This document shows, piece by piece, positions 12,867 through 63,839 of a DNA stretch of 64,000 nt. Below the pieces are notes generated by a model that was not told the DNA's origin, did no database searches, and saw only the letters and a list, made by a program, of their open reading frames with translations. Within the stretch, counting starts at the first letter, position 1. The number at the start of each line of letters is the position of its first letter. This DNA comes from an uncultured Gemmatimonadota bacterium (lineage in GTDB: Bacteria; JAAXHH01). The stretch lies in NCBI GenBank assembly GCA_951812955.1, contig OX638340.1, forward strand, positions 3,616,001-3,680,000, given 5' to 3'. A program made the position numbers and the translations under genes.

Positions 12867-13670
12867 ATGACTGTGATCTCAAAACGCATACTGCCCGGCG
12901 AGCGTCTCGACGACGCCTGGATGGAAGAAATACTCACGGACTTTTACAGGGACGGTTTCGCCCTTATACCGGGTGTGTTGACCCGGGATGAAATCGATGC
13001 CCTCCGCGAGGTGACGGACCGCTGCTTCAACGATCCCGTGCTGGCCGGCACTGATTACCTGAGCGGGCAGGGGGACGGATTCGTGCTCCGCAATACATTG
13101 GAACTGGACGCCGTATTCGTGGACATGCTGATTCGGGAGCCGATCCTGAGTCTGGCTGAAGCCGTCGTGGGAGAGGACTGTAAGTTCTGCGGGCAGAACG
13201 TGATCCGGAACGCGCCGGGCCAGGCCATTTCGCTGTGGCACGTGGACGACCGGGTGGAGTTCCCGTTGCCGGAAGACGTGCACCGCCACGACCCCCGCAT
13301 CCGCATGCCGGTGCAGTGGTTCACCATCCAGATGGCCCTGACAGATATCGATTCGGTGGAGGATGGTCCTACGCAGTTCGTGCCGGGCAGCCAGTATTCC
13401 GGCAGAGATCCCAACAGCCAGGAAAATCCGGAGTTCGAAGGCAGAGGACCGGTCTCTGCGTTATGCAAGGCGGGCGACGTCTACCTGCAGAACAACCAGT
13501 GCTGGCACCGGGGAGCGCCCGTCACATCGGATCAGATGCGCTATGTCTTCCAGTCCCAGTACGCCGCCCGTTGGGCCCACAGGCGGTTCAACGAGTATAA
13601 CCACGTACCTGTGCCGCCCACGGTTCTAAGCCGGGCCTCGGACAGGCTGCGTGGGGTGCTGGGTGCGTGA
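12867..13670 (+). CDS. Phytanoyl-CoA dioxygenase (PhyH)-family Fe(II)/2-oxoglutarate oxygenase (paralog 1)
   Basis: 267 aa with HxD motif WHVDD and a distal His; start may be GTG 12873, better spaced from the AGGAG. Confidence 0.8.
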   Translation: MTVISKRILPGERLDDAWMEEILTDFYRDGFALIPGVLTRDEIDALREVTDRCFNDPVLAGTDYLSGQGDGFVLRNTLELDAVFVDMLIREPILSLAEAVVGEDCKFCGQNVIRNAPGQAISLWHVDDRVEFPLPEDVHRHDPRIRMPVQWFTIQMALTDIDSVEDGPTQFVPGSQYSGRDPNSQENPEFEGRGPVSALCKAGDVYLQNNQCWHRGAPVTSDQMRYVFQSQYAARWAHRRFNEYNHVPVPPTVLSRASDRLRGVLGA

Positions 13671-13760
13671 CGACATGTGCTCAGGTCGGCTTGGCTATTT
13701 AACGGGGCATCCGGCCGATTGCGCAGGCCGGTACCTGGCATGGCCTGATGTACGTCTTGA

Positions 13761-14966
13761 TTAGTGCACGATAGTATCGAACCGCGCGGGCAGCGCCACC
13801 TCGAGCAGCTCGAGGTCGTCGGAGCGGTCCGTGAGGGACGTTTTCGTGTGCGGCGGAATCACGTAGGCGTCTCCCGCCTCCAGCCGGTGTGCGCCCTGGT
13901 CATCCCCGTTCAGGGTCACCTCGCCTTCCATGACGAAGGTGAAGAGGATATCGCCAGTGTGGCTCGTGACCTGTTCCGCGCCTGACGGGCTTCCCTGTTC
14001 GCCTCCTCCGCCGGGGCCTGCGTATTCGCCGCTGATCGTGCCTCCTTGCGCGGAGCCATTCGAGCCGCTGTTCGCACGTGCGACCTGCACCGATGCTACG
14101 CCGCCCGTCGCCTCGCCGATCCCTGTTTCCCGGGCTTCGAATCCCGCTAGTCTCCAGGGTTTCCAGACCGCGTCTTTGAGCTGATGGCGGCAGAATGTCT
14201 GACCGCCGAAGACACGATCGGGGTTCAGCACTCCTGTCGGCAACTCGACCTCGTGGTCGATGGTGGTCACGTGGTCCGCGGGCACGCCGATTTCGATCAC
14301 CTGCAGGTTGTCGGAAGATTCGAGCACGCGATGCCGGATTTCCGGGGGTTGGATCACGCAGTCCCCCGCCTTGAGCATGAAAGGTGGCCCCTGGTCCTCG
14401 TAGACGAGCTTCACCTCGCCACGGTAACAGAAGATCAACTGGAATCCCACCGTATGATAGTGTACAACGTCGGGAACGGGACCGGCGTCGGGGATCCGGA
14501 TGTGGGAAGCAATGATGCTCCCACCCAGGCGGCCGGGCACCAGGTCGCGGTAGTGCATGCCGGCACGGCCGATTACCCAGGGCGTGTTGTCCTTCAGCCT
14601 CCGCACGAGGAAGGCGTGCTCCGTCGGCGGGATTTCCAGCGGCGGATCGGCCCGCACGATCTCGACCCGTGTGCCGTTCGGCGCGGTGAGTTCGGTCCGG
14701 CCGCCGGCCAGAACCGCCGGATCTCGACACAGGATTCGTATTGTGCCCGGCGGTTCGGACGCGCCCTGCTCCAGCCGGATGGTGAGCCCGTGGCCGGAAA
14801 GTACGGAAACTGACGGGTAGTCGGCGGGGTAGATCTTGTCCATACGGAAACCCAGGGTCTTCATGAAGAAGGCCAGGTCCGCGGACAAGTCCGAGGTCGG
14901 CAGCCGGATCTCGGCGCCCTGGATATTGTCCTCGCGGTTGGTCTGCTTGTCGTCATGCAATTGCAT
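13761..14966 (-). CDS. Bicupin protein (two cupin barrels)
   Basis: Two cupin-like cores in an ORF of ~400 aa. Start taken at the internal MQLHDDKQ so that it does not overlap the upstream enolase gene. Confidence 0.65.
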   Translation of the reverse strand: MQLHDDKQTNREDNIQGAEIRLPTSDLSADLAFFMKTLGFRMDKIYPADYPSVSVLSGHGLTIRLEQGASEPPGTIRILCRDPAVLAGGRTELTAPNGTRVEIVRADPPLEIPPTEHAFLVRRLKDNTPWVIGRAGMHYRDLVPGRLGGSIIASHIRIPDAGPVPDVVHYHTVGFQLIFCYRGEVKLVYEDQGPPFMLKAGDCVIQPPEIRHRVLESSDNLQVIEIGVPADHVTTIDHEVELPTGVLNPDRVFGGQTFCRHQLKDAVWKPWRLAGFEARETGIGEATGGVASVQVARANSGSNGSAQGGTISGEYAGPGGGGEQGSPSGAEQVTSHTGDILFTFVMEGEVTLNGDDQGAHRLEAGDAYVIPPHTKTSLTDRSDDLELLEVALPARFDTIVH

Positions 14967-14979
14967 ATCGCCAGCTCCC

Positions 14980-16101
14980 TTATCCTTCGAAACGATACTT
15001 CTCAACGACGTCCATGTTCAGCTCCGTACCCAGTCCGGGTTTCACGGGGAGCCGGAAATAGCCGCTTTCCACGACCGGCGGATCGGTCAGCAGGTCGTCG
15101 CGCCAGGGCGCGTCCCATTTTTCGTCCACGAACTCCAGCACCAGTGCGTTTGGGATATTGGCCATGACGTGAAGGCTCGCCGTCGTGGACACGGCGCTGT
15201 TCGGATTATGGGGCGAGACCTGCATGTAGTAGCTTTCCGCCATGGCGGCGATCTTCTTGGTCTCCATGATGCCGCCCGTGCGCACAACGTCGGGCATGAT
15301 CATGTCCACCGCCTGGGCGGCGATCAGGTCCCGGAAGCCGAAGCGCGTATACCGTCGTTCGCCCACGCAAACGGGCACGTTGACGGACGCGGTCACCCGG
15401 GCCAGGGCGTCGATGTTCTCCGGGTGGACCGGCTCCTCGTAGAACAGCAGGCCGATTTCCTCGAGCCGGTTGCCGATGCGGATCGCGGCGCTCGTGGTGT
15501 ACCGGCATCCCACGTCGGTACAGAGGTCCACCCCGTCGCCCACGGCCTCGCGGCACCGGCGCATGTGTTCCAGGGCCATCTTCTCTTCCTTCAGCGTGAC
15601 AGAGCGAGGCGAGTCAATGCGTTCCCCTTTGACCAGCGGATCCGAGGGGAAGTACGCCTTGATGGCGGTAACGCCCTTGGCGGCCAGTTCTGCGCACTCC
15701 TCCGGGTCGGAGGCATGGCTGTAGAACCGAATGCGGTTGCGGCACGGTCCGCCGATGAGATTGTAGATGGGCTGACCGGTGACCTTGCCCACGATGTCCC
15801 AGAGGGCGATCTCGATGCCGCTGATCGCCGCGATGACCGTACCAGTCTGCCCGATCTGCTCCAGGGCGTAGTACATACGGTGGTACAGGTACTCTATGTG
15901 GAACGGATCCTCGCCGATGATGAGCTTGCTCAGTTCGTCCACGGACTGTGCGATGATGGTGCCGCCCGGCCAGTTCGTCGCGTCCCCCAGGCCCACGACC
16001 CCCTCGTCCGTGTAGACCTGCACGAAGACCCACGGCGAGCCGATGTCCGTCGATTTGCGCCAGGACTCCACCAGGTGCACTTTCACATCGGTGATTTTCA
16101 T
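14980..16101 (-). CDS. Enolase-superfamily enzyme, mandelate racemase/muconate lactonizing family (D-mannonate/galactonate dehydratase-like)
   Basis: 373 aa; MKITDVKVHLV…VQVYTDEGVVGLGDATNW… N-terminal capping domain plus TIM barrel typical of the MR/MLE family. Confidence 0.8.
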   Translation of the reverse strand: MKITDVKVHLVESWRKSTDIGSPWVFVQVYTDEGVVGLGDATNWPGGTIIAQSVDELSKLIIGEDPFHIEYLYHRMYYALEQIGQTGTVIAAISGIEIALWDIVGKVTGQPIYNLIGGPCRNRIRFYSHASDPEECAELAAKGVTAIKAYFPSDPLVKGERIDSPRSVTLKEEKMALEHMRRCREAVGDGVDLCTDVGCRYTTSAAIRIGNRLEEIGLLFYEEPVHPENIDALARVTASVNVPVCVGERRYTRFGFRDLIAAQAVDMIMPDVVRTGGIMETKKIAAMAESYYMQVSPHNPNSAVSTTASLHVMANIPNALVLEFVDEKWDAPWRDDLLTDPPVVESGYFRLPVKPGLGTELNMDVVEKYRFEG

Positions 16102-17120: not shown

Positions 17121-17936
17121 TCAGCGTCCGGCCAGGTCGTCTCCGAGGTCGGTTGCGTCCACTTTGCCTTTCTCCAGGCTCACGCCGACGACGAAGAGCT
17201 CGAGGTCATCGTCCGTATGGTTGTAGATTCCGTGAGCACTGCCCAGGTTATTCAGAATGGCGTCCCCGCGGACGACCTCCTCGGTCTCGCCGTCCACCGT
17301 GATCCGGCCCCGGCCGTTCATGATCATGTAGGCTTCGTCCACGATCTCGTGCCGGTGGTAGCCCACGGAAGTACCCGGCGGCAGTAGGATATGGCAGAGG
17401 TATTCGAAATTTGTCGTGAAATCCCGACTTCCCCATACCTCCCGGAAAAGCACTTCGCCCTTTCCACCGTGATGCCGCCGGGGCTTCAGTAAGGCGCGGT
17501 TGAACCGTCCCACGGGCAATCGATCAGCGGACTCCAGCTTGACCTCTATGCGCGGGTCGTCGAAATCCTCGCACATCGGGGTGCGGGTGGGGTCCACACA
17601 GTGGAAGTTGAAGAACCAGGTATCCTGGTCCGAGTGGTTGTAGATGCCGTGGGATTCACCCGAGCGGAGGGGCACCGCCGCGCCGCCGTCGACTTCGGTC
17701 GTGCGGCCGTTGTGGGTGAACTGCATGGCGTTGTCGATGGTGACGAAGATCTCTTCCGAGTGGATGTGCGTGTGTTGCCCGATGCCGCTGCCGGGCGGGA
17801 AGATGACAGAGTGGATGAACGACCAGGGAGACTTGAACGCCGTCGCATCGAACCCCGGGTTGAAATAGCTCGCCGCGGCGCCGCCGTGGCTGACGCCCAA
17901 TCTCATCTCTTCGCGCCTTGTATGGGTTATCCGCAT
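17121..17936 (-). CDS. Bicupin protein
   Basis: 271 aa with two cupin_2-like halves (…IGQHTHIHSEEIFVTIDN… and …VGYHRHEIVDEAYMIMNGRG…). Confidence 0.7.
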   Translation of the reverse strand: MRITHTRREEMRLGVSHGGAAASYFNPGFDATAFKSPWSFIHSVIFPPGSGIGQHTHIHSEEIFVTIDNAMQFTHNGRTTEVDGGAAVPLRSGESHGIYNHSDQDTWFFNFHCVDPTRTPMCEDFDDPRIEVKLESADRLPVGRFNRALLKPRRHHGGKGEVLFREVWGSRDFTTNFEYLCHILLPPGTSVGYHRHEIVDEAYMIMNGRGRITVDGETEEVVRGDAILNNLGSAHGIYNHTDDDLELFVVGVSLEKGKVDATDLGDDLAGR

Positions 17937-17993: not shown

Positions 17994-18794
17994 CTAAAGG
18001 GCGACTTCCTCGACAGGCTGCGTGCCGGTCTCGTAGGCGGGCCGCCACCGGTCGTGGGCCATGGACTCCTCCTCGCTGAGCCCGCACAGCCAGTTCCAGG
18101 TGTGGATGCGGCGTCTCAGGTCCCGGTAGGATTCCACTCCACTCGTGTATGGCGCGGCCGGCCGGTCGCGGTACACGGGGATTTCTTCCGAATCGATGAG
18201 CCAGTCGCGCTGCGGCGGTGCATTGCGGAAGTAGGAGAATTTGATCATGCTGCGGGGCTTGTGATTGAGCTTCGGGCCCGCCCGGTGCCAGATGCCGTAC
18301 CGGGTGATGGCCACGGTGCCGGCCTTCACTACGAGCGAAAGCTGGCCCGTGAGATCGCCGTAGTGGGCGAGGGCGTCGCGGTTGACCGCCCGGCAGTGGG
18401 AACCGGGCAGGATCATGGTCGGCCCGTCTTCGATCCCCACGTCCTGCGGATAATAGTAGCACTGGAGTTCGTTGATCTCGTAACCCTGGCCGGAAATGCC
18501 GTCCGAATGCCAGTCCTGACCCGCGACGGGCTCGTTTATGAGGTGGTGATGGCCGCCCGTCGGCATCAGGAAGTTGGCACCGAGCAGCGAACGTATCACG
18601 CCTGCCAGCCGCGGATGGAGCAGGACTTCGCGGACGAAATCCGGTGAACCGACCAGTTCCTTCGCGCGGCCGACCTTGACGTTGCGGCACTGCGCGTTGA
18701 AACCGGGATCCACCATTTCTTCAAGCACCGCGTAACCCTTCGCCACGAAATCCATCACGTCGTCGTCGGTCATTGTCGGTCTGATCTCCGCCAT
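17994..18794 (-). CDS. PhyH-family dioxygenase (paralog 3)
   Basis: 266 aa; …QDWHSDGISG… HxD motif. Confidence 0.8.
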   Translation of the reverse strand: MAEIRPTMTDDDVMDFVAKGYAVLEEMVDPGFNAQCRNVKVGRAKELVGSPDFVREVLLHPRLAGVIRSLLGANFLMPTGGHHHLINEPVAGQDWHSDGISGQGYEINELQCYYYPQDVGIEDGPTMILPGSHCRAVNRDALAHYGDLTGQLSLVVKAGTVAITRYGIWHRAGPKLNHKPRSMIKFSYFRNAPPQRDWLIDSEEIPVYRDRPAAPYTSGVESYRDLRRRIHTWNWLCGLSEEESMAHDRWRPAYETGTQPVEEVAL

Positions 18795-18806: not shown

Positions 18807-19169
18807 TCAGTTCCACTTCTCGAGTATGAAATCGAAACCCACGTAGTCGTTTTCCAGGTCCTTGTACTCGTACAGCTTGGGGATGGGGTACTGCACCACG
18901 CGCCACCCGTCGGCAACGGCCTCCAGCACGGAGTCGTACGGCGGCTCGTCGCCCGGCAGTCTCAGCACGGGCTTCTCGCCGGGAACGAATACCACCCAGC
19001 CCACGATCCCGGACCGCATATTGGTCGACCGTGCGGTCAGGTACATGATCTTCGGCCGGGGCGGGTTTTCCAAGAACGATTCCAGCTTGTCCAGGTCCCG
19101 TTCTTCCAGTGCGCCGTTTTCGAGTTTCCCGCGGCTTTCAGCGATCCACTGCCTGATTTCCGATTGCAT
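18807..19169 (-). CDS. Hypothetical protein, first gene of the minus-strand PhyH/bicupin/enolase cluster
   Basis: ~120 aa from the internal start MQSEIRQW…; no recognisable domain. Confidence 0.4.
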   Translation of the reverse strand: MQSEIRQWIAESRGKLENGALEERDLDKLESFLENPPRPKIMYLTARSTNMRSGIVGWVVFVPGEKPVLRLPGDEPPYDSVLEAVADGWRVVQYPIPKLYEYKDLENDYVGFDFILEKWN

Positions 19170-19533
19170 TTCGTGATGTCCCTTTGCCGAGTCTGACGTC
19201 GCGGACAATACAGATGCTAAAGGTGTAATGTACAAGGCGTTCTGATTATCGATGTCAGGAGTACGAATGCTCCTGCAATGGTACAGAGGCTACCGGTACC
19301 GTGTCAAGCAGGAATGAACCGTCTTTTTTGAAGGTGGTTTCGGCATGGAAGCCGCTGGTCTTGACAGCGTCCGGCACGCCGCTTAAGTTGCCTTCTGACG
19401 GTCATCGAAATGCGATCATCCAGGTCATTCAGTTCATTCCGACCAGCTGAACAGCGTGCGCAATTCGGGCAGAAACTTCCGGTCCGTCGATTTCCCGTTA
19501 CCAATTTCGATTCTCAGTTTAAAGGTATTCTAT

Positions 19534-21395: not shown

Positions 21396-21399
21396 TCCC

Positions 21400-22227
21400 A
21401 TGCCCGCCTACCCCCGCTACCTCACCAAAGCTCAATTGGAGCAGTTCTGGTCCGACGGCTACCTGGTTTTGAAAGGCACGCTGGATCAAGAAGTGGTAGA
21501 AAAAGCCCGCGAATTCCTGCTGGACCTGATCCCGCGGGACCTGGTCATCCCGGACCACTACCACGCGAACCACGGCCGGTTCAAGCCCCACCACCCCGAC
21601 GGGAATGGCAGCTTTTTTGAACCTGCGATGCTGCCCCTGATGCAGAACGAAGCACTTTACGGCGCTGCCGTGGATATACTGGAGACAGAATACATCCGGG
21701 TGTGGGACGGTTCGGCGGGGATAACGCTAAGAAACCGCGCCATGGAAGGACGGCTCCAGAACCTCCACCTCGACGCTGTACCGGGAGGGCCCGAAGACCT
21801 GAATGAGGGGTTCCTTCGCACGGGAATAGGTATCGGCGGATGTTATTACCTGAACAAGGTTGAAGGTGAGGGCGGCGGCATCCACGTGGTTCCCGGCGGG
21901 CCGAACCGGGTGAGGGATATCATGCTTAACGAACCGGACGGTCTGACGCGCAACAACGGCTGGGGTCATATCACCGATTTTTCGTCGTCCATGGAGGTAA
22001 CCGGTGATGCCGGCGATTTCGTGCTGATGCATCACCTGATGCCCCACTCGGCCAGCGCCAATCACAACGCCGCGCCACGGATCGCCCAGTTCACCCGTCT
22101 GCAGGCCCTGACGGACGATGACGCCCGCCTCGCTCCGGGTCCCGACCGACCCCTGGACCCCGCAGCGCTTGGCGCCCTGACACCCCTGGGACGCAAACTG
22201 TTCCGCCTGGCCCCGTGGATCGGGTAA
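21400..22227 (+). CDS. PhyH-family dioxygenase (paralog 5)
   Basis: 275 aa; YLTKAQLEQFWSDGYLVLKG… N-terminus; LHLDAV motif. Confidence 0.8.
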   Translation: MPAYPRYLTKAQLEQFWSDGYLVLKGTLDQEVVEKAREFLLDLIPRDLVIPDHYHANHGRFKPHHPDGNGSFFEPAMLPLMQNEALYGAAVDILETEYIRVWDGSAGITLRNRAMEGRLQNLHLDAVPGGPEDLNEGFLRTGIGIGGCYYLNKVEGEGGGIHVVPGGPNRVRDIMLNEPDGLTRNNGWGHITDFSSSMEVTGDAGDFVLMHHLMPHSASANHNAAPRIAQFTRLQALTDDDARLAPGPDRPLDPAALGALTPLGRKLFRLAPWIG

Positions 22228-22242: not shown

Positions 22243-24216
22243 TTGGAACGGACGTACTCCATGTCCTCTGAACCTCCCCGGTCCCGTGGCCCTTCGGCCA
22301 TATCCCTGCGGGCCGGGATCATCGGGCTCGCGCTCTCCGCCGTGGTGGCTTTCTGGGGCCAGTTCGCCGCCGATCACGCCGGTTACAACTATACCACCTA
22401 CGCCCATATCCCCTCGGCGCTGCTGATCCCCTTCCTGATCCTGATCCTGGGTCCCCACGTCCTGCTCAAGAGGCTGGCGCCCGGGTACGCCCTGACGACT
22501 TCCGAGCTGATCGTGATTTTCGTCATGGGCCTGATCGGTTCGATGGTGCCCGACTGGGGCATGACGAGATACCTGGTCTCCCTCATCACGGGGCCCTTCT
22601 ACCATGCGAGTCCCGAGAACCGCTGGGCGGAGACTTTTTTCGAGACCTTGCCCGGGTGGCTCGTGATCAGCGGCAAGACGGACGCGGTACGGGTTTTCTA
22701 CGAAGGCGCCGCGCCGGGTTACCGGATCCCGTGGATGGCCTGGATCTCGCCCCTGCTGTGGTGGATGTCGTGTTTCGCCGCCCTGATGTGGACGGGCGCA
22801 TGCATCGTGGTCATCCTGCGAAAGCAATGGGTCAGCCACGAAAGGCTGCGCTTTCCCCTGGGGGAGGTATCGCTCAACCTGATGGGCGTGGCGAAGGACC
22901 CGAACGAGCCGCCCATGGTCCGCACGACTGCCTTTCGTATCGGCGCCGGCCTGTCGCTGGCCGTCGTGTGCTGGAACATCGCCTCCTACTGGGACATCGT
23001 TACCCCTATCCCCATCATGGGGCCGGACCTGCTGTATCTGAAGGTCCATCCGTCGATACCGGATCTTCCCATCCGGCTGAATGTCTTCGTACTGTGTTTC
23101 GCTTTCTTCATAAACGCCGAGATCCTGTTCAGCCTGTGTTTCTTCCTGCTCTTCACCACGCTGCAGCGGGGGCTGATGAACATGCTCGGGATCACGGCGG
23201 CCACGACCATGTCTCCTACCGGGCTCGTGGGCACCCAGTCCATCGGTGCCCTGATCGCCCTGGTGGTGTGGGGATTGTGGATGGCCCGTCGTCACCTGGC
23301 CGGTGTGGCCCGGCGGGCGTTTCGAAAGGATCCGTCGATCGATGACAGCAGTGAGTTCTTCTCGTACCGGGTGGCGGTTTTCGGATTGATCTTCGGCATG
23401 CTCTACCTGCTGGCATGGCTTTACAGCATCGGCATGTCGCTGCCCGTCAGCCTTGTCCTCCTGGCCGTACTCTTCATCGTCTACATCGGAATGGCCCGGA
23501 TCGTTGCGGAGGCGGGTCTGGTCGCCATGGACCTGCCGGTAACAGCCAACAACTTCACCGGGGGCATTATCGGCGCCGACAACCTGGACCCGTCCTCGAT
23601 CACCGCTATGGGCATGACGAACGCCTTCGCCCGGAACTGGCGGACCTTTACGATGATCGGGCTGTCTCACGCCGCCTACCTGCAGCGCTGGATGGGGCCG
23701 TCCACCCGGCACCTCTTCCTCTGGATCTGCCTGGCCTTCGCCGTCAGTGTCGTAACTTCCCTCTACTACTACATCAGCGCGGGTTATGCAGTCGGCGCCG
23801 ATAATCTGCTGTCCAAGCCCGGCGACCTCGTACCCTTCTTCTACAACACGATCATGACGTGGAACAGCAGCGCAAGCAGTGTCTCGGAACTGGAACTGAT
23901 CTTCTTCGGGAACGGTATCGTCCTGTACATGCTGATGATCCTCGGACGCTTCATGTTTCTCTGGTGGCCGCTGCATCCCATCGGCCTGGTCGCCGTGGCC
24001 GCGGACACCGTGCGGTTCATGTTCCTACCCTTCCTGCTGGCCTGGCTCGTCCAGGTAATCCTGCTGCGCCTGGGTGGAGGAGCCCTTTACCGCAGAGCGC
24101 AGCCCCTGTTTCTCGGCATCCTGGTTGGATATGTCCTTGGGATGGCCCTCTCATTCCTGGTGGACAGCCTGTGGTTTCCGGCCGCACCGCACCAGTTCGA
24201 ATCCTTTATCAACTGA
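22243..24216 (+). CDS. Large polytopic membrane protein of unknown function (paralog A of 28259..30250)
   Basis: 657 aa with >12 hydrophobic segments. Shares ITGPFYHASPENRWAETFF… and RKQWVSHERLRFPL blocks with the 28259 gene. Confidence 0.7.
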   Translation: MERTYSMSSEPPRSRGPSAISLRAGIIGLALSAVVAFWGQFAADHAGYNYTTYAHIPSALLIPFLILILGPHVLLKRLAPGYALTTSELIVIFVMGLIGSMVPDWGMTRYLVSLITGPFYHASPENRWAETFFETLPGWLVISGKTDAVRVFYEGAAPGYRIPWMAWISPLLWWMSCFAALMWTGACIVVILRKQWVSHERLRFPLGEVSLNLMGVAKDPNEPPMVRTTAFRIGAGLSLAVVCWNIASYWDIVTPIPIMGPDLLYLKVHPSIPDLPIRLNVFVLCFAFFINAEILFSLCFFLLFTTLQRGLMNMLGITAATTMSPTGLVGTQSIGALIALVVWGLWMARRHLAGVARRAFRKDPSIDDSSEFFSYRVAVFGLIFGMLYLLAWLYSIGMSLPVSLVLLAVLFIVYIGMARIVAEAGLVAMDLPVTANNFTGGIIGADNLDPSSITAMGMTNAFARNWRTFTMIGLSHAAYLQRWMGPSTRHLFLWICLAFAVSVVTSLYYYISAGYAVGADNLLSKPGDLVPFFYNTIMTWNSSASSVSELELIFFGNGIVLYMLMILGRFMFLWWPLHPIGLVAVAADTVRFMFLPFLLAWLVQVILLRLGGGALYRRAQPLFLGILVGYVLGMALSFLVDSLWFPAAPHQFESFIN

Positions 24217-24368: not shown

Positions 24369-25733
24369 ATGGCCACGAAATCCGGACGCCCCAATCTCCT
24401 GTTTATCATGGACGACCAGCACCGGCACGACTACCTGTCCGCGGCGGGAGCGACCTTCGTGCGCACGCCGAACCTGGACTGTTTGGCGGAACGCGGGGTC
24501 CGATTCAGCCAGTGCATAACCAACGCCCCGGTCTGCGCGCCCGCGCGCATCGGCCTGGCCAGCGGCTACCAGCCCGCGCGGCTGGGGTGCCTGGACAACA
24601 ACTGCTACCTGCCCCGCCATATCACGCCCTATTACGTCCGGCTTCGGGACGCGGGATACCGGGTCGGGTGCGTGGGGAAACTCGACCTGGCCAAGCCGGA
24701 TCCCTACAACGGCCGCCACGGCGACCGAGCCCGGGTGTTCGGTTGGGGTTTCACCCATCCCGTGGAATGCGAAGGCAAGATGCACGCGGGCATGGCGGAC
24801 CAGCCGCGGGGACCTTATGGATTCTGGCTTCAGGAGCAGGGACTCTTCGAACGCTTCCGGACGGATTACGCGGCCCGGGGAGCGCGGGGCTGGATCGAGG
24901 GTGCTTCCCATGATTCTATATTGCCTGAGGACGCTTTCGAGGATGCCTACATTGGCCGCCGCGCCGTGGAATGGATGGACACCGTCCCCGACGATTACCC
25001 GTGGCATCTCTTCGTCAGCTTCGTGGGGCCGCACGATCCCTTCGATCCGCCTACGTCATACGCGGAACGATACCGGGGCGCTGCCGTGCCGCCGGCAATA
25101 CGAAGCAACGAAGAGGGGAAGCCGTCCTGGGTCAACGCCCGTCGGCGCGACCTGTCCGAAGATGAAGTGGCAGTTACGCGCCGGCAGTATTGCGCGGTCA
25201 TCGAACTGATCGACGACCAGGTAGGCCGGATCATCGAAGCCGTAGAACGGCGGGGCATGGCGGAGGATACCATCGTCGTGTTCGCCAGCGACCACGGCGA
25301 AATGCTGGGCGACCATGGCCTGTACACCAAATCCGTTCCCTACGAGGTGGCCCTGCGCGTGCCGCTCATTGCCGCTGGACCAGGCATAGCGGGAGGGCGT
25401 ACTTCCGACGCCCTCGTGGAACTGATCGACGTCAATCCGACCCTGTGCGGTCTGGCGGGTCTGCCCGCCCAGGAAGGGCTCGACGCCAGCGACTTCAGCG
25501 CCGTGCTCACCGGGGATCGTTCGACCCACCGCGAGGAAGCGGCCAGCGCGCTTCGCGAATTCCGGCTCGTACGCACGGCGGATCACAAGCTTGTGGTGCA
25601 CCACACGGGTGAAACGGAGCTATACGACCTGAAAAACGATCCTGAAGAGCTTGAAAACGTGGCGGCCGATCGGCCCGATGCGGTCAACGCGCTGCGAAGG
25701 CGTCTGCAGCGGCGATTTCACTTCCCGCCCTAA
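24369..25733 (+). CDS. Sulfatase (formylglycine-dependent, Cys-type), no signal peptide
   Basis: 454 aa; NLLFIMDDQHR…NAPVCAPARIGLASG (C-x-P-x-R motif), followed by a typical sulfatase core. Confidence 0.85.
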   Translation: MATKSGRPNLLFIMDDQHRHDYLSAAGATFVRTPNLDCLAERGVRFSQCITNAPVCAPARIGLASGYQPARLGCLDNNCYLPRHITPYYVRLRDAGYRVGCVGKLDLAKPDPYNGRHGDRARVFGWGFTHPVECEGKMHAGMADQPRGPYGFWLQEQGLFERFRTDYAARGARGWIEGASHDSILPEDAFEDAYIGRRAVEWMDTVPDDYPWHLFVSFVGPHDPFDPPTSYAERYRGAAVPPAIRSNEEGKPSWVNARRRDLSEDEVAVTRRQYCAVIELIDDQVGRIIEAVERRGMAEDTIVVFASDHGEMLGDHGLYTKSVPYEVALRVPLIAAGPGIAGGRTSDALVELIDVNPTLCGLAGLPAQEGLDASDFSAVLTGDRSTHREEAASALREFRLVRTADHKLVVHHTGETELYDLKNDPEELENVAADRPDAVNALRRRLQRRFHFPP

Positions 25734-32717: not shown

Positions 32718-32765
32718 AATAGTATTACCTCTCTTGGATGGGTTGGTGAATCCAACTGGAGCGGC

Positions 32766-33785: not shown

Positions 33786-33845
33786 TATGACTGCTCCAAC
33801 AGGCGGTACGCGGGACCTCCGCTTGGAAAGGTCCGTCGCGTTCGC

Positions 33846-44930: not shown

Positions 44931-44934
44931 GCGG

Positions 44935-54787: not shown

Positions 54788-55867
54788 TCAGTATTCTTCG
54801 AGCACGGATCCCTCGATGCCCCGTGTTCCATCTTCATAAACATAATAGTAAACGACCAGCACCCGTCCATCATTCAATTCGAGCGACCAGGGATACCCGC
54901 AGTCCGGTTCCAGGGAATCGGCGCGCACGACGATTTCCGGCGCGGTATCCAGGTCGCCGGCTTCGGGATCGAGGACACGCGCCAGGCATCCCATCTGTCC
55001 TTCCCACCGGGTTCCCACCGTGGCCAGGATGCGGCCGTCCCGCAGCCCGAGCAGGTGTCCGGGACATCCCCGCATCGTCGTCGACCGCCATGGGGACCAG
55101 GTCTCGCCTCCGTCATCCGAATGGACTTCCACCAGGTGCACGTCCTGTCCTGGTGGTTGGTTCGGATGACAACGGAAGAGTACCAGGATACGGCCGGACG
55201 GCGTCATGTGGATCGCCGGTTCGCTGAAATGAGCGACGTCGTCCACGGCAATGCGCCCGGCATAAGTCCAGGTATGTCCGCCATCGGTCGACGATTGCAT
55301 CATGCCGAAAAAGGGTGGCCTGCCTTCTGGATGATCCGTCGCCTTGCCAGGTAGCAGAAGACGCCCGTCCGGCATCTCCAGCAAACCGCTCCGGCAGACC
55401 CCGGAGTGCGACGCGGGATGGCCGTTCACGGCGTCCGGCATTGGTGGAAAGCTTTCGGGATGTGTCCAGGTCGTCCCATCGTCCAGCGATCGTACGTTGA
55501 AACCCACTCCCGGGCGGGACACCCAGGTATGCTTGGAGACCTCCGGCGGATCGGCGGGTAACAAATCCACCGTGCTGGCGTGCAGGAAGATTTCACCGGA
55601 TGAAAGGGGATGGGTGCCGAAATCGACCACGCCGCCGAAGGGGTAGGCCGTTACCAGTTCAACCGGCCCCCAGGACTGCCCTTCATCTTCGGACCGGCAG
55701 GCCCGCACGTCGAAGAGGGGATGGCTGTGGTGACTGAATCCCGTGGCGGGTGACCGGTGAAATAACGTCAGCAGGTCACCGCCGGGTGTCCGGATAATGT
55801 TCGGATGGGCGCCGTACCAGCCCTCATCGCGGTAGATCGTAATATGATCCGCTACGCGCCAGCTCAT
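54788..55867 (-). CDS. BNR-repeat (sialidase-like) beta-propeller protein, no signal peptide
   Basis: Four Asp-box motifs: SEDEGQSW, SLDDGTTW, STDGGHTW, SDDGGETW. Confidence 0.8.
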   Translation of the reverse strand: MSWRVADHITIYRDEGWYGAHPNIIRTPGGDLLTLFHRSPATGFSHHSHPLFDVRACRSEDEGQSWGPVELVTAYPFGGVVDFGTHPLSSGEIFLHASTVDLLPADPPEVSKHTWVSRPGVGFNVRSLDDGTTWTHPESFPPMPDAVNGHPASHSGVCRSGLLEMPDGRLLLPGKATDHPEGRPPFFGMMQSSTDGGHTWTYAGRIAVDDVAHFSEPAIHMTPSGRILVLFRCHPNQPPGQDVHLVEVHSDDGGETWSPWRSTTMRGCPGHLLGLRDGRILATVGTRWEGQMGCLARVLDPEAGDLDTAPEIVVRADSLEPDCGYPWSLELNDGRVLVVYYYVYEDGTRGIEGSVLEEY

Positions 55868-59248: not shown

Positions 59249-62053
59249 ATGATTACGTTGTTTAAAAACGGACTACCACAGTCACAGATCGTGCTGTCCC
59301 CTTCGTCCGGACCGGCAGAACGGCGTGCCGCTCTCGAGTTCCAGCGCATCGCGAAATGCATGTGCGGTGTTGAACTGCCCATACATAAGGTGTCGGACGG
59401 ACAATCTCCAGCCGGCGCCGATGGATCTCCAGCCGGCGCCGATGGATCAGATCCCGTCCCCGGAGACGCCTCAGGTCGGGTATACATCGGGTGGGCGCCT
59501 CAGGATCTCGCCATCAATCTCTCCGAAACCGCCCTGGGCTACGACGGTTATGTCATCCTGTGCGCCGGCAACATACTGGTGCTGACAGGACGAAAGCCCT
59601 ACTCGGCGCTTTATGCCGCGTACCGCCTGTTCGAAGAACATCTTGGCTGCGGTTTCTTCGAAGAAGGCGAGCAGATTCCCCGGACGGATACCGTCTCGAT
59701 TGGCGAACTGACGGACTACCGCAAGCCCCGGTTCAAGTGGCGGATGTATTTTGCGAACATGCAGGATGCCTACAGCGGCATGCGCTGGTGGACCTGGGAG
59801 GAGTTCAAACCCTGGATCGACTACCTGGTCAAGAAACGGTTCAACATCCTCGAGAGCGGCAACATCGCGGACTGTTGCGGCATCGGCGCGCTGGCGGCCA
59901 ACCGGCTGGGCGTACCGGTGGAACTGACCGACTGGCAGAAAGCGCGCATCGCGTTGCTGCGGCGCGTCTTCGACTATGCCCGGGAGGCCGGAATCCGGAT
60001 CCGGTACCGCATGCAGCTTCACGTGGGCACGCCCGCGGTCAATCCCGGTTTTTCTCCCTACGCTGACGGCCGACAACTCCAGGAATTCGTGGACGGGTAC
60101 GAGGCCATGACCGGCGCGAAGATCCGCGTGGCGCCCCTGGAGTGGTGCGGCGAGTCCGAGATCGTCCTCGACCCGCGGGACCCGGTGACCCGGCGGTTCA
60201 CAACCGCCGTGGTGGAGTCTTACGGACAAGCGCTGGGTACGGACCATCTCTACAGCCTGTGGCTGCCCACGGAGGAGACCTGGGTGGAGGATGACCCGGA
60301 CCGGGCCGCGGAACTGACCCGCGCGTCCGTCGACGGCATGATCCAGGCCATCCGGGAAGGCGACCCGGACGCGGTGCTGTTCAGCCCACGGGTGTGCACG
60401 GACAATCCCACGGCGGCCGCACAGGCGCAGGCGGTCCGGGACGCAGGCCTGCCCGTGATCGGCAACATGTTCCTCAACCACGGCGGCCGCATGTACGACT
60501 TCCTGCGGTGCGACTACTACTGGGGCCTGCCGTGGTCCACGGGCATGTGCGGCCAGTGCGGCCGGGAGACCAACCCCAACGGCGATATCGAAACGGCGAT
60601 CAACAATGCCCGGTCGCTGGCGGATCACCCAAAGGCGCGGAACCTCCAGGGCTTCATGGTGTCGACCGAAACCAACCATCGGAACGTCATGACCATGGAT
60701 CTCTACGCGGAGCTGTCGTGGAATCCAGCGGACCTGGATCCCGACGACTACATCGAACGGTGGAACCGCAGGAGATACGGACCGGCGGCCGAAGGCACCC
60801 GTCCAGCCGTCCGGATATTCGCCGAAACGATCATGGCCTACTTCGACCCGTGCACCCACAACGGTCCGCTTTACCGAAACTGGGACGGCACCCTGCTGCC
60901 CGGTCTCACTTCCGGGTCCGTCAAACGGCTCATCGGATTCCTGCCGTCCCTACACGAGATGCTCGAGATCCTGCTTTCCCCGTACGATAAACTCGGAGAT
61001 TCCCCCATGTACCGCTTCGACCTGGTGGATATCGGACGCACCTACCTGGCGGGCATCTTCAACCATCGCCTGGCTGACGCGCGCAAGGCCTTTCGCGCCG
61101 GGGACAGGGAAAGGTTCGAGCGAATGGCCGGGGAGACGGAGCAGGTAATGCTCGCCATGGCCCGGTACTGCAGTGCCCATGAGCAGTTCAGGCTGAAGAC
61201 CCACGACGAATGGGCGGCGCGGTGGCCCGAGATCGTGCCCGGCCACGCCAACGGCGAAAGCAACTGGATCACCTTCACCGCGCTGATTTCCCTGGAAAAC
61301 TGGCAGGTGCTGCTGGACTACCTGCCGGAAGATTTCGCCGAGATGATCGTCCACTATTTCCTCCCCCGCGTGCGGCAGTACATCGACCGGATGCGGACGA
61401 TGATGGACCGGGGCGAGGATATTTCGGAACGGCTGGTGGACCGGGATTCAGACGTGGATCTGCCGTCCCGCGTGGCGAATTGGTCGACGCCCCAGGGCAA
61501 CACGCCCTGGTCGCCCTACGGGGACACCTGCGAGCCCGAGTTGACCGAAGAGGACGAAGCACTCGCCCTTAGGCTCATCAAGGCCGGATCCGTAAGCGGC
61601 AGCTACGACTATTATGAGGGTCCACTCGATACGCTCGTCCGCGAGATGCTGGACGAGTTCCCGTCCCCCGGGGACATCGAGGAGATCCTCGCGGAGGAAG
61701 ACTACGCGCCGCCGAGTAACCGGCTGGTATTGCACGGCGTCCCCGGTGAGACGATCGAGGGCTTCAACGTGCCCGGTTTCGTGGAAAGGGTCGAGGTCCC
61801 GCGAGAACTCCAGAATCTCATCGCGGTGCGCGAGGTACGCAGGGAGTACAATATCGCCCGGGGTGAGATCGCCCTGTACCAGGTGACCGTACCGCCGGAG
61901 GTCGAACTGACCCGCCTCGAAGACGTATCCGCTTCCTCGGACGGCCACGATGTTGCGGTATTCACCTTCCAGGAGGGAGCAACTGATTACAAGGTATGGT
62001 TCGACAGCGGGACGGACCTGGACGTGGCCTCTTTGGTAGTGAAACGGATTTAG
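59249..62053 (+). CDS. Large (934 aa) putative glycoside hydrolase, TIM-barrel type (GH20/GH89-like or DUF4838-like)
   Basis: Long uninterrupted ORF with aromatic-rich blocks (…MRWWTWEEFKPWIDYLVKKRFNILE…). Family assignment is tentative. Confidence 0.45.
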   Translation: MITLFKNGLPQSQIVLSPSSGPAERRAALEFQRIAKCMCGVELPIHKVSDGQSPAGADGSPAGADGSDPVPGDASGRVYIGWAPQDLAINLSETALGYDGYVILCAGNILVLTGRKPYSALYAAYRLFEEHLGCGFFEEGEQIPRTDTVSIGELTDYRKPRFKWRMYFANMQDAYSGMRWWTWEEFKPWIDYLVKKRFNILESGNIADCCGIGALAANRLGVPVELTDWQKARIALLRRVFDYAREAGIRIRYRMQLHVGTPAVNPGFSPYADGRQLQEFVDGYEAMTGAKIRVAPLEWCGESEIVLDPRDPVTRRFTTAVVESYGQALGTDHLYSLWLPTEETWVEDDPDRAAELTRASVDGMIQAIREGDPDAVLFSPRVCTDNPTAAAQAQAVRDAGLPVIGNMFLNHGGRMYDFLRCDYYWGLPWSTGMCGQCGRETNPNGDIETAINNARSLADHPKARNLQGFMVSTETNHRNVMTMDLYAELSWNPADLDPDDYIERWNRRRYGPAAEGTRPAVRIFAETIMAYFDPCTHNGPLYRNWDGTLLPGLTSGSVKRLIGFLPSLHEMLEILLSPYDKLGDSPMYRFDLVDIGRTYLAGIFNHRLADARKAFRAGDRERFERMAGETEQVMLAMARYCSAHEQFRLKTHDEWAARWPEIVPGHANGESNWITFTALISLENWQVLLDYLPEDFAEMIVHYFLPRVRQYIDRMRTMMDRGEDISERLVDRDSDVDLPSRVANWSTPQGNTPWSPYGDTCEPELTEEDEALALRLIKAGSVSGSYDYYEGPLDTLVREMLDEFPSPGDIEEILAEEDYAPPSNRLVLHGVPGETIEGFNVPGFVERVEVPRELQNLIAVREVRREYNIARGEIALYQVTVPPEVELTRLEDVSASSDGHDVAVFTFQEGATDYKVWFDSGTDLDVASLVVKRI
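59405..59446. repeat. 21-bp tandem duplication (tctccagccggcgccgatgga x2) encoding SPAGADG x2
   Basis: Direct perfect duplication inside the large ORF, near its N-terminus. Confidence 0.7.
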
Positions 62054-62195
62054 CGCGGGCCGCATATAACGCCAGCGGTTTGTATGACGCGTAACGGCGG
62101 AGTTTCCTTTTGACAGCCGCTGACCTCGCCGCTTAACATTGCATAGGGTTTAGCATACCGTCTGCACCGCGGAACATTGTCCGGAGCATCGACCT

Positions 62196-63002
62196 ATGAT
62201 GCCTGCACCGGAAGACTACGACCTCGACCTCAAAGTAGCGGAACTCAAGATCAATGGGTTTACGGCCTTTGAAGATCTCATTCCGCCAGAGAAGATCGAC
62301 CGGATTCGTGAGGCGTTCCTGCCCAGACTGAACCGGCTCAGGGATCGCGAGAAAGGCGGGATTCATCCGGAAGAGCGGGGTGAGGTGAGCACGGGAAAGG
62401 GGCGCCAGCAGTTCATCAACCGCTTTACGATGCACGTGCCCTGGGAGACTCCTTTCTCCGATCCGGATATCTACGAGAACCCGGTCGTGCTGGCCTTTCT
62501 CGAGAGATACTGGGGCGCGGACGATTTTCAAATCACCTGCTATCATTCCAACAACCCCTACCCAGGCAGTGAATTTCAACCGTGGCACCGGGACATCCAC
62601 CTGATCACGCCCCACGTGGGCCTGCCGGTCTGTCCCCACTTCGGCATCAAGTTTCCCCTCGTGGACACGAACGAGGAAAACGGCAGCTTCGAGGTCATGC
62701 CCGGCACCCAGTACCTGGCGGACCCGGAAATGGAGAAGGCGTACGACGAGATCCTGTGCAACGGCCATTTCCCGGGCGCGCACCGGATGAACCTGAAGAA
62801 AGGGACCATGTGGGTGCAGGACCCAAGAACCCTGCACCGGGGTACGCCGAACCGGTCCGATCACGCCCGCATGGAACTGGTCATCTGCTATTCCCGGCCG
62901 TGGTTCCGTCCGTCGACCGTAGAGATATCGCAGGCGGAATATGACAAACTATCTGAACGCGGCCGGGCAATGCTGACACGCAGCATCATCACGGCGTCCT
63001 GA
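62196..63002 (+). CDS. PhyH-family dioxygenase (paralog 12)
   Basis: 268 aa; …FQPWHRDIHL… HxD and …HRG… distal His. Confidence 0.8.
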   Translation: MMPAPEDYDLDLKVAELKINGFTAFEDLIPPEKIDRIREAFLPRLNRLRDREKGGIHPEERGEVSTGKGRQQFINRFTMHVPWETPFSDPDIYENPVVLAFLERYWGADDFQITCYHSNNPYPGSEFQPWHRDIHLITPHVGLPVCPHFGIKFPLVDTNEENGSFEVMPGTQYLADPEMEKAYDEILCNGHFPGAHRMNLKKGTMWVQDPRTLHRGTPNRSDHARMELVICYSRPWFRPSTVEISQAEYDKLSERGRAMLTRSIITAS

Positions 63003-63044
63003 CCCCTTTCATCTGCCTACCGCGATCTGTATGAGGAGCAGCCC

Positions 63045-63839
63045 ATGTTGACCGAGGCCCAGATCGCCCATTTCCAGACCTTCGGATTCCTGGTCATACG
63101 ACAGGCCTTCACGCGTTCGGAGGTGGAGGCACTGATCCGGGAGGCCGATGCGGCTTACGCGGCGAAATCGGACCGCGAAAAAGACGGCTCGTCTTCGATG
63201 TGGACATCTGAGTTAGTAGAGGAACGCCCGGCCTTGATGAAGCTGATGGAGGACGACCGGATCTACCTGTCCATAGGCGGACTCCTGGGCCGGGATTTCA
63301 TCTGGAACGGGTCCGAAATCATGTGGGGGATCGACCCGACGCTGGCCGATCACACCTGGCATTTCGATGGCCATAAGACCTCGCGGAATCTCGACTATCC
63401 GCGGACCAAGGTCATGCTGTACCTCGATCCCCAGCGGAGGGACACCGGCGCGCTGCGCGTCATCCCCGGTTCCCATCGGGATCCTCTTCACAAAGCGCTG
63501 TTCCCCCTTCAGGACGCCCACCTGGGCGGAGACCCCAACCCTTACGGCGTCGAGGGACCGCAGATTCCCGCCTGCGCCATCGAAACGGATCCGGGCGACA
63601 TCGTCTTCTTCAACCAGTGGCTGTATCACGCGGTGTACGGCAAGGAGGGAAAACGGAGGGTCATCGTCCTCAAGTTCGGACCCCGGCCACGGACGCACGC
63701 CCATCTGGCCATGCTGCGGGACGGCGCACCTGCCGGGTTTGCGCCACATCCGGCTTTAAGCAACAGCAAGCGTCTCCGTATCAGGCGACTGGCCGAGGCG
63801 TGCTCCGAACTCGAAGCGCAGGTTGAAAAACTGGATTGA
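63045..63839 (+). CDS. PhyH-family dioxygenase (paralog 13)
   Basis: 264 aa; MLTEAQIAHFQTFGFLVIRQAF…; …HTWHFDGHK… HxD. Confidence 0.8.
   Translation: MLTEAQIAHFQTFGFLVIRQAFTRSEVEALIREADAAYAAKSDREKDGSSSMWTSELVEERPALMKLMEDDRIYLSIGGLLGRDFIWNGSEIMWGIDPTLADHTWHFDGHKTSRNLDYPRTKVMLYLDPQRRDTGALRVIPGSHRDPLHKALFPLQDAHLGGDPNPYGVEGPQIPACAIETDPGDIVFFNQWLYHAVYGKEGKRRVIVLKFGPRPRTHAHLAMLRDGAPAGFAPHPALSNSKRLRIRRLAEACSELEAQVEKLD

Follow-up and report, generated by a model that had tools for sequence, protein, structure and literature searches.

A bounded hot-spot of thirteen divergent PhyH-family genes among catabolic-looking modules in an uncultured bacterium

The window analysed here, i.e. the whole stretch of 64,000 nucleotides (nt) that covers positions 3,616,001 to 3,680,000 of the forward strand of contig OX638340.1 (GenBank assembly GCA_951812955.1), originates from an uncultured bacterium classified as Gemmatimonadota and carries 13 genes of the PhyH family (PF05721), whose products are predicted to be Fe(II)- and 2-oxoglutarate (2OG)-dependent oxygenases. 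Gene calling in the window relied on codon-position GC (guanine plus cytosine) content. The paralogs, each named in the following after the first coordinate of its entry, are listed below with their PF05721 scores:

12867..13670, plus strand: PhyH paralog 1, 267 amino acids (aa), HVD...H, 70 bits
16216..17094, minus strand: PhyH paralog 2, 70.3 bits, directly upstream of the enolase-superfamily gene
17994..18794, minus strand: PhyH paralog 3, 41 bits
19456..20283, plus strand: PhyH paralog 4, 56.7 bits, probable start at 19534
21400..22227, plus strand: PhyH paralog 5, 29.8 bits, the lowest score of the 13
25788..26624 (open reading frame (ORF) to 26831), minus strand: PhyH paralog 6, predicted HygX-type variant, 70.8 bits
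40725..41711, plus strand: PhyH paralog 7, 50.3 bits, probable start at 40860
44911..45741, plus strand: PhyH paralog 8, PHYHD1-like, 124.9 bits, probable start at 44935
47376..48209, plus strand: PhyH paralog 9, 98.5 bits
52947..53900, minus strand: PhyH paralog 10, 78.8 bits
53932..54720, minus strand: PhyH paralog 11, 49.8 bits
62196..63002, plus strand: PhyH paralog 12, 66.5 bits, also present in a 97%-identical ENA contig
63045..63839, plus strand: PhyH paralog 13, 53 bits, 215 homologs

In a Pfam scan all 13 ORFs pass the PF05721 gathering score of 22 bits (range 29.8-124.9 bits), so that the count of 13 PhyH genes given in an earlier note, which was based on the letters of the window alone, is confirmed and an assignment of the ORFs to unrelated families was not seen. 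Moreover, a hidden Markov model (HMM) built from the 13 paralogs retrieves precisely these 13 from the six-frame ORFs of the whole window, the next match having an E-value of 0.23. The alignment reveals the canonical HxD...H arrangement in 12 of the 13 paralogs, in agreement with the proposal that most of them carry an HxD motif, the exception being 25788, which exhibits H-S-G...D-x3-H instead. The distal His is present in every paralog and is always followed, 10-12 residues further towards the C-terminus, by an Arg; in the PhyH family an Arg at this place is assigned to the binding of the C5 carboxylate of 2OG. By family membership and catalytic residues the 13 proteins are thus predicted Fe(II)/2OG oxygenases. 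The starts chosen earlier at 19534, 40860, 44935 and, for a hypothetical gene described below, 19169 are internal Met codons that fit the lengths of the orthologs and should probably be preferred to the longest ORFs; the N-termini of the orthologs also agree with the first three. By the same reasoning, the probable start is 17019 for 16216 (267 aa) and 26624 for 25788 (278 aa). No paralog (0 of 13) reaches a curated NCBIfam cut-off, the best scores for the EctD, PhnY* and PtlH equivalogs being 19-37 bits as compared to cut-offs of 336-550.

Pairwise identity among the paralogs is 17-39%, with the exception of 40725 and 53932, which are 49% identical over 266 aa, so that the 13 copies correspond to 13 clusters at 60% identity. 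The next relative of this pair, 63045, is 30-32% identical to its two members (32% to 40725). The pair had been regarded as clearly recent; it is indeed the closest one, but an identity of only 49% speaks against a recent duplication. Neighbouring PhyH genes are not each other's closest relatives, save for a weak relationship between 19456 and 21400 (E-value 3e-8), and in the adjacent pairs 52947/53932 and 62196/63045 identity is about 28% or the alignment spans only 28 aa. Within the compared parts of related genomes every paralog has its own ortholog at 71-99% aa identity, and the ratios of nonsynonymous to synonymous substitution rates (dN/dS) against these orthologs are 0.02-0.23, which matches the range of the flanking enzyme genes. 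In detail, the orthologs of 12867 are 79-95% identical in the clade (dN/dS 0.05-0.11) and 54-55% identical in Poribacteria, where they lie near an ortholog of the enolase-superfamily gene; the values are 74-99% and 0.02-0.14 for 17994, and 73-96% and 0.07-0.14 for 21400. For 16216 dN/dS is 0.10-0.23, and for 52947, which has its ortholog in the 97%-identical ENA contig, it is 0.11. As judged by these comparisons, the paralogs are anciently diverged and under purifying selection.

A recent local amplification or an assembly artefact would also place many members of one family in a single window, and 52947/53932 and 62196/63045 look tandem-like at first sight. Nevertheless, the probability of this explanation is practically negligible. 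The paralogs can be neither artefacts nor recent copies because they share only 17-49% identity, they have separate orthologs with dN/dS far below 1, and the same gene order is found in independent assemblies: positions 5,872-25,259 of the window are colinear with OY762445.1, the closed 3.9-Mb chromosome of a metagenome-assembled genome (MAG), at about 94% nt identity, and positions 53,056-64,000 are colinear with a 2.47-Mb ENA contig at 97.4% nt identity. Collapsed or near-identical repeats, which the earlier note had named as a way to be wrong, are countered by the same data. GC content is even across the PhyH region, the sole dip being located at the insertion of a PIN-domain gene at ~20.3-21.4 kb.

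The local density amounts to 13 PhyH genes in ~55 genes, about 10 times the genome average of Poribacteria (~2%). At a density of 1.9%, the poribacterial minimum, about one PhyH gene would be expected in ~55 genes and P(≥13) is ~1e-10; even at a hypothetical density of 8% P(≥13) is ~7e-4. As a control, 504 kb flanking distant homologs of the enolase-superfamily gene in 28 other genomes contain zero PhyH genes. Full-length 21-kb loci in relatives contain 5-6 each. The PhyH hot-spot is bounded on both sides: with the HMM of the 13 paralogs no PhyH was found among the six-frame ORFs of positions 1-12,866, and the 10 kb beyond the right edge of the window, as represented by the 97%-identical contig, contain no PhyH, but RND efflux proteins, an amidohydrolase and EamA.

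The region does not constitute one cluster; at least four modules are distributed over both strands, all of them cytoplasmic and catabolic-looking. Module A (12.9-20.3 kb), an acid-sugar module, brings together an enolase-superfamily dehydratase with two bicupins and four PhyH genes; it consists of PhyH 12867 on the plus strand, a minus-strand operon and PhyH 19456, again on the plus strand. The order hypothetical protein, PhyH, bicupin, PhyH, enolase, bicupin reported earlier for the minus strand is correct. Apart from PhyH 17994 and 16216 the operon contains:

18807..19235, minus strand: conserved hypothetical protein, first gene of the operon, probable start at 19169; orthologs (61-92%) in the same position
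17121..17936, minus strand: bicupin, Cupin_2 with two matched stretches
14980..16101, minus strand: enolase-superfamily acid-sugar dehydratase, MR_MLE_N and MR_MLE_C
13761..15005, minus strand: bicupin, last gene of the operon, Cupin_2 with two matched stretches and AraC_binding; orthologs 68-91%

The best NCBIfam match of the enolase-type protein is galactonate dehydratase (249 bits, below the cut-off of 311), its PDB matches are putative dehydratases, and there is also a weak match to NF043002. Searches of the PDB and NCBIfam yielded generic cupin matches only for both bicupins, and the hypothetical protein has no Pfam match.

The linkage of PhyH genes to the dehydratase was evaluated in 79 loci around enolase homologs, 51 of which are at least 73% identical to the protein of the window and 28 of which are distant (<50%). 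PhyH genes occur in 47 of the 51 loci with an orthologous enolase gene, in 28 cases within 300 bp, and in none of the 28 distant loci (504 kb). At enolase identities of at least 88% a PhyH gene lies within 300 bp in all 19 loci, with 2.6 PhyH genes per 10 kb, and at 80-87% PhyH is present in 6 of 6 loci; for all loci at or above 80% the distance is 300 bp or less in 24 of 25. At 73-79%, i.e. in Poribacteria and in MAGs labelled as Gemmatimonadaceae, Latescibacterota or Chloroflexi-type, PhyH is found in 22 of 26 loci. In the loci inspected gene by gene the PhyH next to the enolase gene is the ortholog of 16216, whose subfamily comprises only 52 clusters in 5.8 billion proteins; the 50 clusters that are near full length are all at least 48% identical. 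The enolase pairing is not a constant of 16216-type PhyH proteins, however, as it is lost in distant members (48-56% identity), which adjoin genes for GFO/IDH/MocA, AP_endonuc_2, a sulfotransferase, a sugar ABC transporter and another PhyH.

The enolase orthogroup itself is sharply delimited, as its members in the clade, in Poribacteria and in MAGs labelled as Chloroflexia, Anaerolineaceae or Gemmatimonadaceae are followed, below 73-79%, by homologs of only 37-43% identity. This cross-phylum distribution points either to horizontal transfer between heterotrophs that are marine or live with a host, or to a very strong constraint. In one poribacterial locus three tandem PhyH genes and a PhyH-HEAT fusion are located beside GH32, an aldo-keto reductase, the enolase ortholog and GFO/IDH/MocA. 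The fusion protein (479 aa; OZ252032.1, locus L023, 1094-2533, plus strand) carries HEAT repeats at its C-terminus, has its gene upstream of the tandem trio and shows a weak relationship (28-32%) to PhyH 17994 of the window.

The same enolase gene gives an idea of the host organism. It is 88-97% identical in ~20 species-representative MAGs, several of them closed chromosomes of 3.5-3.9 Mb. The nearest MAGs are labelled Candidatus Latescibacterota, Gemmatimonadetes or 'bacterium' and have isolate names such as APA_bin, IRC1_bin, SB0665_bin and Plut_, prefixes which we take to denote sponge and coral (Porites lutea) metagenomes; the sponge-associated lifestyle proposed earlier is in line with these names. 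Poribacteria come next with 77-79% for the enolase and only 54-79% for orthologs overall. The host is thus not a poribacterium, since the nearest genomes (88-97% in the enolase, 94% at the nt level) bear the labels Latescibacterota, Gemmatimonadetes or 'bacterium'. No phylogenetic marker genes are present in the window. The window represents ordinary chromosome of a probably sponge- or coral-associated clade, and the organism probably corresponds to symbionts of the UBA2968/PAUC34f type. Sponge-associated Latescibacterota (class UBA2968 with the lineages Anck6, PAUC34 and SAUL) were described by Robbins et al. 2021, who found them, as well as Poribacteria, to be enriched in glycoside hydrolases and carbohydrate esterases.

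Module B (21.4-30.7 kb), which by its genes would serve import and desulfation, combines PhyH 21400, two DUF6785+DUF6784 proteins, two sulfatases and the HygX-type PhyH 25788. Its further genes are listed here, signal-peptide and transmembrane (TM) calls throughout being crude hydropathy estimates:

22243..24216, plus strand: polytopic membrane protein with DUF6785+DUF6784 (358 + 64 bits), ~14 TM-like segments, putative importer
24369..25733, plus strand: Cys-type sulfatase with SGSH_C, CAPAR at residue 56
26809..28182, plus strand: second Cys-type sulfatase with SGSH_C, CVPFR at residue 55
28259..30250, plus strand: second DUF6785+DUF6784 membrane protein, ~11 TM-like segments, 35% identical to orthologs of the first copy

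The view that the Cys-type sulfatases lack signal peptides holds, because in both proteins (CAPAR and CVPFR) the catalytic domain starts directly at the N-terminus. The two DUF6785/6784 copies bracket both sulfatases. The membrane proteins are candidate importers of sulfated substrates; DUF6785 is not mentioned in the literature searched.

Between the sulfatase genes lies 25788, in which the acidic residue of the metal-binding triad is missing (L-H-S-G-G), as in six orthologs of the clade. Among the query and its best 120 homologs H-S-G is found in 121 of 121 and D-x3-H in 120 of 121 sequences. Its best sequence match in the PDB is HygX (E-value 4e-13; 22-24% identity), the n-E-a-l-m-H of which aligns with v-D-g-i-s-H of 25788. 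For an AlphaFold2 model (pLDDT 75.7, pTM 0.81) the 15 best Foldseek matches are all HygX chains (E-value 3.8e-15, TM score ~0.6-0.65), and of 405 PDB matches at E ≤ 1e-3 the best 50 are all 2OG oxygenases, indicating a double-stranded beta-helix fold. In hygromycin B biosynthesis HygX is the Fe/2OG oxygenase that forms the orthoester. Like HygX (4XC9/4XCA/4XCB/4ZPI), 25788 has a Gly in place of the usual acid and an acidic residue four positions before the distal His; unlike HygX, this residue is an Asp, not a Glu, no orthosomycin-type genes are located nearby, and the contexts of the homologs are mutually unrelated. A triad of the type H-X-G...E-X3-H with relocated acid has been described for HygX in a 2026 review (PMC13374393). 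Although an HxG motif is also expected of a halogenase, the conserved D-x3-H and the HygX match rule this out for 25788, which we classify, by motif and predicted fold, as a HygX-type variant-triad oxygenase.

A search with 25788 gave 3,680 PhyH-family matches at E ≤ 1e-5, the best 120 of which share 68-97% identity and originate, where sources are named, from Gemmatimonadota, Latescibacteria, Zixibacteria, Handelsmanbacteria, Anaerolineae and Chloroflexota. Such conservation, unusual for PhyH, suggests either that the subfamily has a single, specific substrate of wide occurrence or that it spread horizontally in recent times. In the three distant contexts examined the HygX-type subfamily has no common neighbourhood, which together with its distribution sets it apart from a specialised enzyme of antibiotic synthesis. 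The position between sulfatases is thus specific to the clade, and the function of 25788 cannot be read from its context.

Module C (30.8-47.2 kb) accounts for about a third of the region and encloses PhyH 40725 and 44911:

30798..44097: amide/amino-compound module with two FmdA/AmdA amidases, PALP, GGT, two aminotransferases, NIPSNAP, an amino-acid permease and Amidohydro_2
44166..44930, plus strand: HpcH/HpaI-type aldolase, immediately upstream of PhyH 44911

The pair of HpcH and PhyH 44911 is followed by a TENA/PQQC gene, which is part of the module, and PhyH-HpcH pairing recurs in two other loci (L084/L085). On the basis of this module it could be argued that the PhyH proteins mainly hydroxylate or demethylate small nitrogenous osmolytes, amines and amino acids, e.g. 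ectoine-, betaine-, taurine- or creatinine-like compounds, which abound in sponge tissue, instead of glycan-derived molecules, the sugar-related genes being part of a general catabolic island. The amidases, PALP, GGT, aminotransferases and permease around 40725 and 44911 would fit, distant homologs of 63045 have creatininase, DAO and a peptide transporter of the Opp type in their vicinity, EctD, the leucine hydroxylase GriE and MysH are among the PDB relatives of 44911 and 47376, and the enolase superfamily, to which the weak NF043002 match may be added, includes amino-acid/betaine epimerases and hydroxyproline dehydratase. However, the EctD and PhnY models score only 19-37 bits as compared to cut-offs of 336-500, the enolase-type protein best matches acid-sugar dehydratases, and the commonest neighbours across phyla are of the sugar type (GFO/IDH/MocA, AP_endonuc_2, GH4, GH32 and HpcH), which renders this explanation unlikely for the array as a whole.

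Module D (47.4-63.8 kb), of the glycan type, contains the remaining five PhyH genes (47376, 52947, 53932, 62196 and 63045), together with genes for a solute-binding protein (SBP_bac_5), YgjV and a TMEM164-like protein and the following:

54788..55867, minus strand: BNR_2 beta-propeller, sialidase-like, 64 bits, no signal peptide
56063-56902, minus strand: CPT-like (chloramphenicol-phosphotransferase-like) kinase gene, supported by Pfam and a related contig
56913-58283: 456-aa protein with a sub-threshold GH32-like match only
59249..62053, plus strand: GH89/NAGLU-like protein, 934 aa, no signal peptide

As for the BNR/sialidase-like proteins on which the catabolic proposal had partly been built, the one at 54788-55867 is solid (64 bits), whereas a second one at 5865-7019 stays below the threshold. 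The longest ORF at 56472-58283 (603 aa) was discarded as a gene, as the related contig and Pfam favour the CPT-like gene and the 456-aa protein instead. A CPT-like gene is also found near PhyH in another genome (L083). Taken together, positions 58280-62053 (TMEM164-family and GH89/NAGLU-like) and 24369-28182 (two SGSH_C sulfatases) form a co-located set, no member of which has a signal peptide. The set recalls that of lysosomal heparan-sulfate degradation, which comprises NAGLU, SGSH and a membrane acetyltransferase. A single cupin and a UxuA-like protein are also among the neighbouring genes of the region.

For several paralogs the closest relatives of solved structure, i.e. HygX, EvdO2, KanJ, SnoK/SnoN and PHYHD1, have glycosides or nucleoside sugars as substrates. 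For 12867 the nearest PDB entry is KanJ (E-value 5e-5), for 44911 it is PHYHD1 (1e-23), with SnoK (2e-18) and EvdO2 among the further matches, and for 47376 it is 6ZYK, annotated as 'monooxygenase' (1e-18), with SyrB2 (9e-14) and MysH as additional relatives; the PDB search with 53932 gave no relative below an E-value of 2e-3. In view of the SyrB2 match and of a TIGR01762 score of 77.9 bits (cut-off 226), 47376 was considered as a halogenase and rejected, as it retains HQD. KanJ (kanamycin B dioxygenase), EvdO/AviO and SnoK/SnoN share fold and cofactors with 12867, 44911 and 47376, to which they are remote PDB relatives, but they are biosynthetic and have no gene context in common with them.

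The biosynthetic role of these relatives (HygX, EvdO2, KanJ, SnoK, SyrB2, MysH) raises the question of whether the PhyH proteins are tailoring enzymes of a biosynthetic pathway, e.g. for an oligosaccharide, an aminoglycoside-like compound or a cell-surface glycan. We regard this as quite improbable, less so than an artefact but more so than a role in osmolyte turnover. Neither polyketide synthase, nonribosomal peptide synthetase, glycosyltransferase or sugar-nucleotide genes nor terpene synthases/cyclases are found among the Pfam-scanned gene calls; the genes nearby encode hydrolases, dehydratases, an aldolase, amidases and uptake systems; the PhyH genes belong to at least four modules and lie on both strands; and the expansion in Poribacteria is genome-wide (>1.9% of genes, PMC3909097), which is atypical of a single pathway.

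The poribacterial expansion is the closest known system. In Poribacteria PF05721 accounts for >1.9% of genes, as compared to <0.049% in all other genomes that were available at the time (Kamke et al. 2014, PMC3909097). As in that case, the organism of the window would be a sponge-type symbiont with many highly divergent PhyH genes, most of them without an assignable function and most falling into separate clusters at 60% identity, in a carbohydrate-degrading and sulfatase-rich gene background; the 12867-type ortholog (54-55%) and the linked enolase (77-79%) are shared. In contrast to Poribacteria, the closest genomes are MAGs of 3.5-3.9 Mb labelled Latescibacterota or Gemmatimonadota, and the genes form a bounded locus that is syntenic in related genomes where compared. 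A full-text literature search for PhyH or phytanoyl dioxygenases in sponge-associated Latescibacteria/PAUC34f yielded only the work on Poribacteria as relevant, and the PAUC34f and sponge MAG literature searched mentions neither PhyH nor dioxygenases.

Smaller PhyH arrays are found elsewhere. No exact match to the protein 63045 is on record, so that its gene context was read from a 99%-identical homolog. Its homologs at 40-46% identity, on an ocean contig with a protein named Candidatus Moanabacter tarae and in genomes of 5.4-6.4 Mb, occur in clusters of two or three PhyH genes and neighbour MR_MLE, DAO, AP_endonuc_2, thiamine-pyrophosphate enzymes, creatininase, a sulfatase and TauD, and furthermore Opp/SBP_bac_5, CPT, GH4, HpcH and GFO/IDH/MocA. 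Together with Poribacteria and other MAGs with the 16216 subfamily, these genomes carry 2-4 PhyH genes per locus of ~17-21 kb, GH32 and ABC transporters being present as well. Hence, several divergent PhyH genes within sugar-type catabolic neighbourhoods constitute a pattern that recurs under several phylum-level labels.

A second known system concerns individual enzymes. PHYHD1-like PF05721 enzymes, one of them from Poribacteria, demethylate 2'-O-methyl nucleosides (2025, PMC12709175), an example of oxidative O-demethylation at a sugar hydroxyl within the family, and human PHYHD1 is the best PDB match of 44911 (E-value 1e-23), as stated above. 44911 is 25-26% identical to the tested demethylases from Poribacteria and S. 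colocasiae, the sequences of which were machine-read from the supplement PDF, and it is the best match in the window to the poribacterial enzyme. At 26% identity an orthology of the two is unsupported, and 44911 is encoded directly behind an HpcH aldolase.

On balance we lean, if only by a little, towards the idea that the PhyH proteins are cytoplasmic oxidative 'unblocking' enzymes that serve several catabolic modules, their substrates, the outcomes and the catabolic direction being what we infer. Such a role fits best because the oxygenases are old, diverse and selected, appear to be cytoplasmic and are repeatedly linked to uptake systems and to enzymes for the conversion of sugar acids, sulfate esters and amino compounds. 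Fe(II) would be held by the triad of two His and one carboxylate, and 2OG would be decarboxylated with O2, giving rise to a ferryl species that would abstract a hydrogen from an unactivated C-H bond of an imported small substrate. Hydroxylation beside a heteroatom would create an unstable hemiacetal or hemiaminal and might thus result in the loss of an O-methyl, N-methyl, amino or sulfate group; alternatively, hydroxylation may install the hydroxyl required by a neighbouring dehydratase, bicupin, aldolase or hydrolase. Decorated host-derived sugars, sulfated compounds and amino compounds would be the targets. The deamination by KanJ and desulfation of the AtsK type are precedents among 2OG oxygenases. 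For O-demethylation, PHYHD1/FJS sets the precedent (PMC12709175).

Several points weigh against this role. Among the relatives of solved structure, those with glycosides as substrates are tailoring enzymes of biosynthetic pathways, in a PDB sample that is biased to natural-product enzymes, and the paralogs are only 20-28% identical to characterised enzymes. The evidence is co-location, not co-expression, and the 13 genes are divided among many transcription units on both strands. Outside the clade no neighbourhood is conserved for the HygX-type paralog, so that its sulfatase context may be incidental, and module C indicates amino compounds rather than glycans. Finally, the local density may in part reflect a very high PhyH background throughout the clade. 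Unblocking in the sugar-type modules and action on nitrogenous osmolytes could both be true, for different paralogs.

The earlier note had proposed an unusually diversified oxidative catabolism of sulfated, branched or glycan-derived substrates. The expansion within catabolic-looking cytoplasmic gene sets and the link to sugars uphold the core of this proposal, but its branched substrates drop out, as nothing in the analysis points to phytanoyl-like compounds. Its glycan part stands as far as PhyH genes co-occur across phyla with genes for enolase-superfamily, GFO/IDH/MocA, xylose-isomerase-like, GH4, GH32 and HpcH proteins, and gives way at 30.8-47.2 kb, where the genes are of the amide or amino-acid type.

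A more far-reaching, rather doubtful version of the unblocking idea, which we nevertheless rate slightly above a role in osmolyte turnover, is that PhyH arrays represent a new class of cytoplasmic carbohydrate-active Fe/2OG oxygenases. Each paralog would strip one decoration (O-methyl, sulfate, amino or N-acyl) from imported fragments of host glycans or hydroxylate these fragments, and the products would pass to enolase-type dehydratases, bicupins and aldolases. Horizontal transfer would in part account for the occurrence of the toolkit in Latescibacterota from sponges, in Poribacteria and in further marine heterotrophs, and the HygX-type subfamily would be a distinct and widespread enzyme with a single conserved substrate.

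An expansion of PhyH genes has been known from Poribacteria since 2014; it is not restricted to them, and new here are its presence in a Latescibacterota-labelled lineage and its extreme, bounded local density. Further new aspects are the maintenance of individual paralogs as orthologs, the cross-phylum link to one enolase orthogroup and the widespread HygX-type subfamily. Moreover, some paralogs are tightly and recurrently linked to defined partners, i.e. the dehydratase and bicupins for 16216 and 17994, HpcH for 44911, and sulfatases and putative importers for the HygX-type protein, and the locus thus offers small syntenic operons suited to the cloning and screening that the decade-old PhyH question calls for. 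If decorated sugars are indeed the substrates, an oxygenase layer would be added to marine and host-glycan degradation, which is now described almost wholly via hydrolases, lyases and sulfatases.

Some features of the window lie beside the PhyH modules. The PIN-domain gene (20754-21395) is located in a 1.1-kb segment of lower GC content between PhyH 19456 and 21400, and this segment (20284-21396) is considered an insertion because it has no counterpart in related loci. In an unrelated genome a PIN/RHH toxin-antitoxin pair (L092:7062-7708) likewise lies between two PhyH genes, probably by coincidence. Positions 2000-5700 constitute a low-GC insertion (~0.50 as compared to 0.61) with a small defence-type islet, which is mostly missing from the related loci examined and encodes a TIR-domain protein of the CAP12/Pycsar-effector type (2307-2768, 137 bits) as well as an N6/N4 DNA methylase (3986-5122). 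Between the islet and the first PhyH gene, 10814-12592 on the minus strand encodes a protein of 592 aa that combines an N-terminal S-adenosylmethionine methyltransferase with a C-terminal HNH_4 nuclease motif and is 84-92% identical in relatives.

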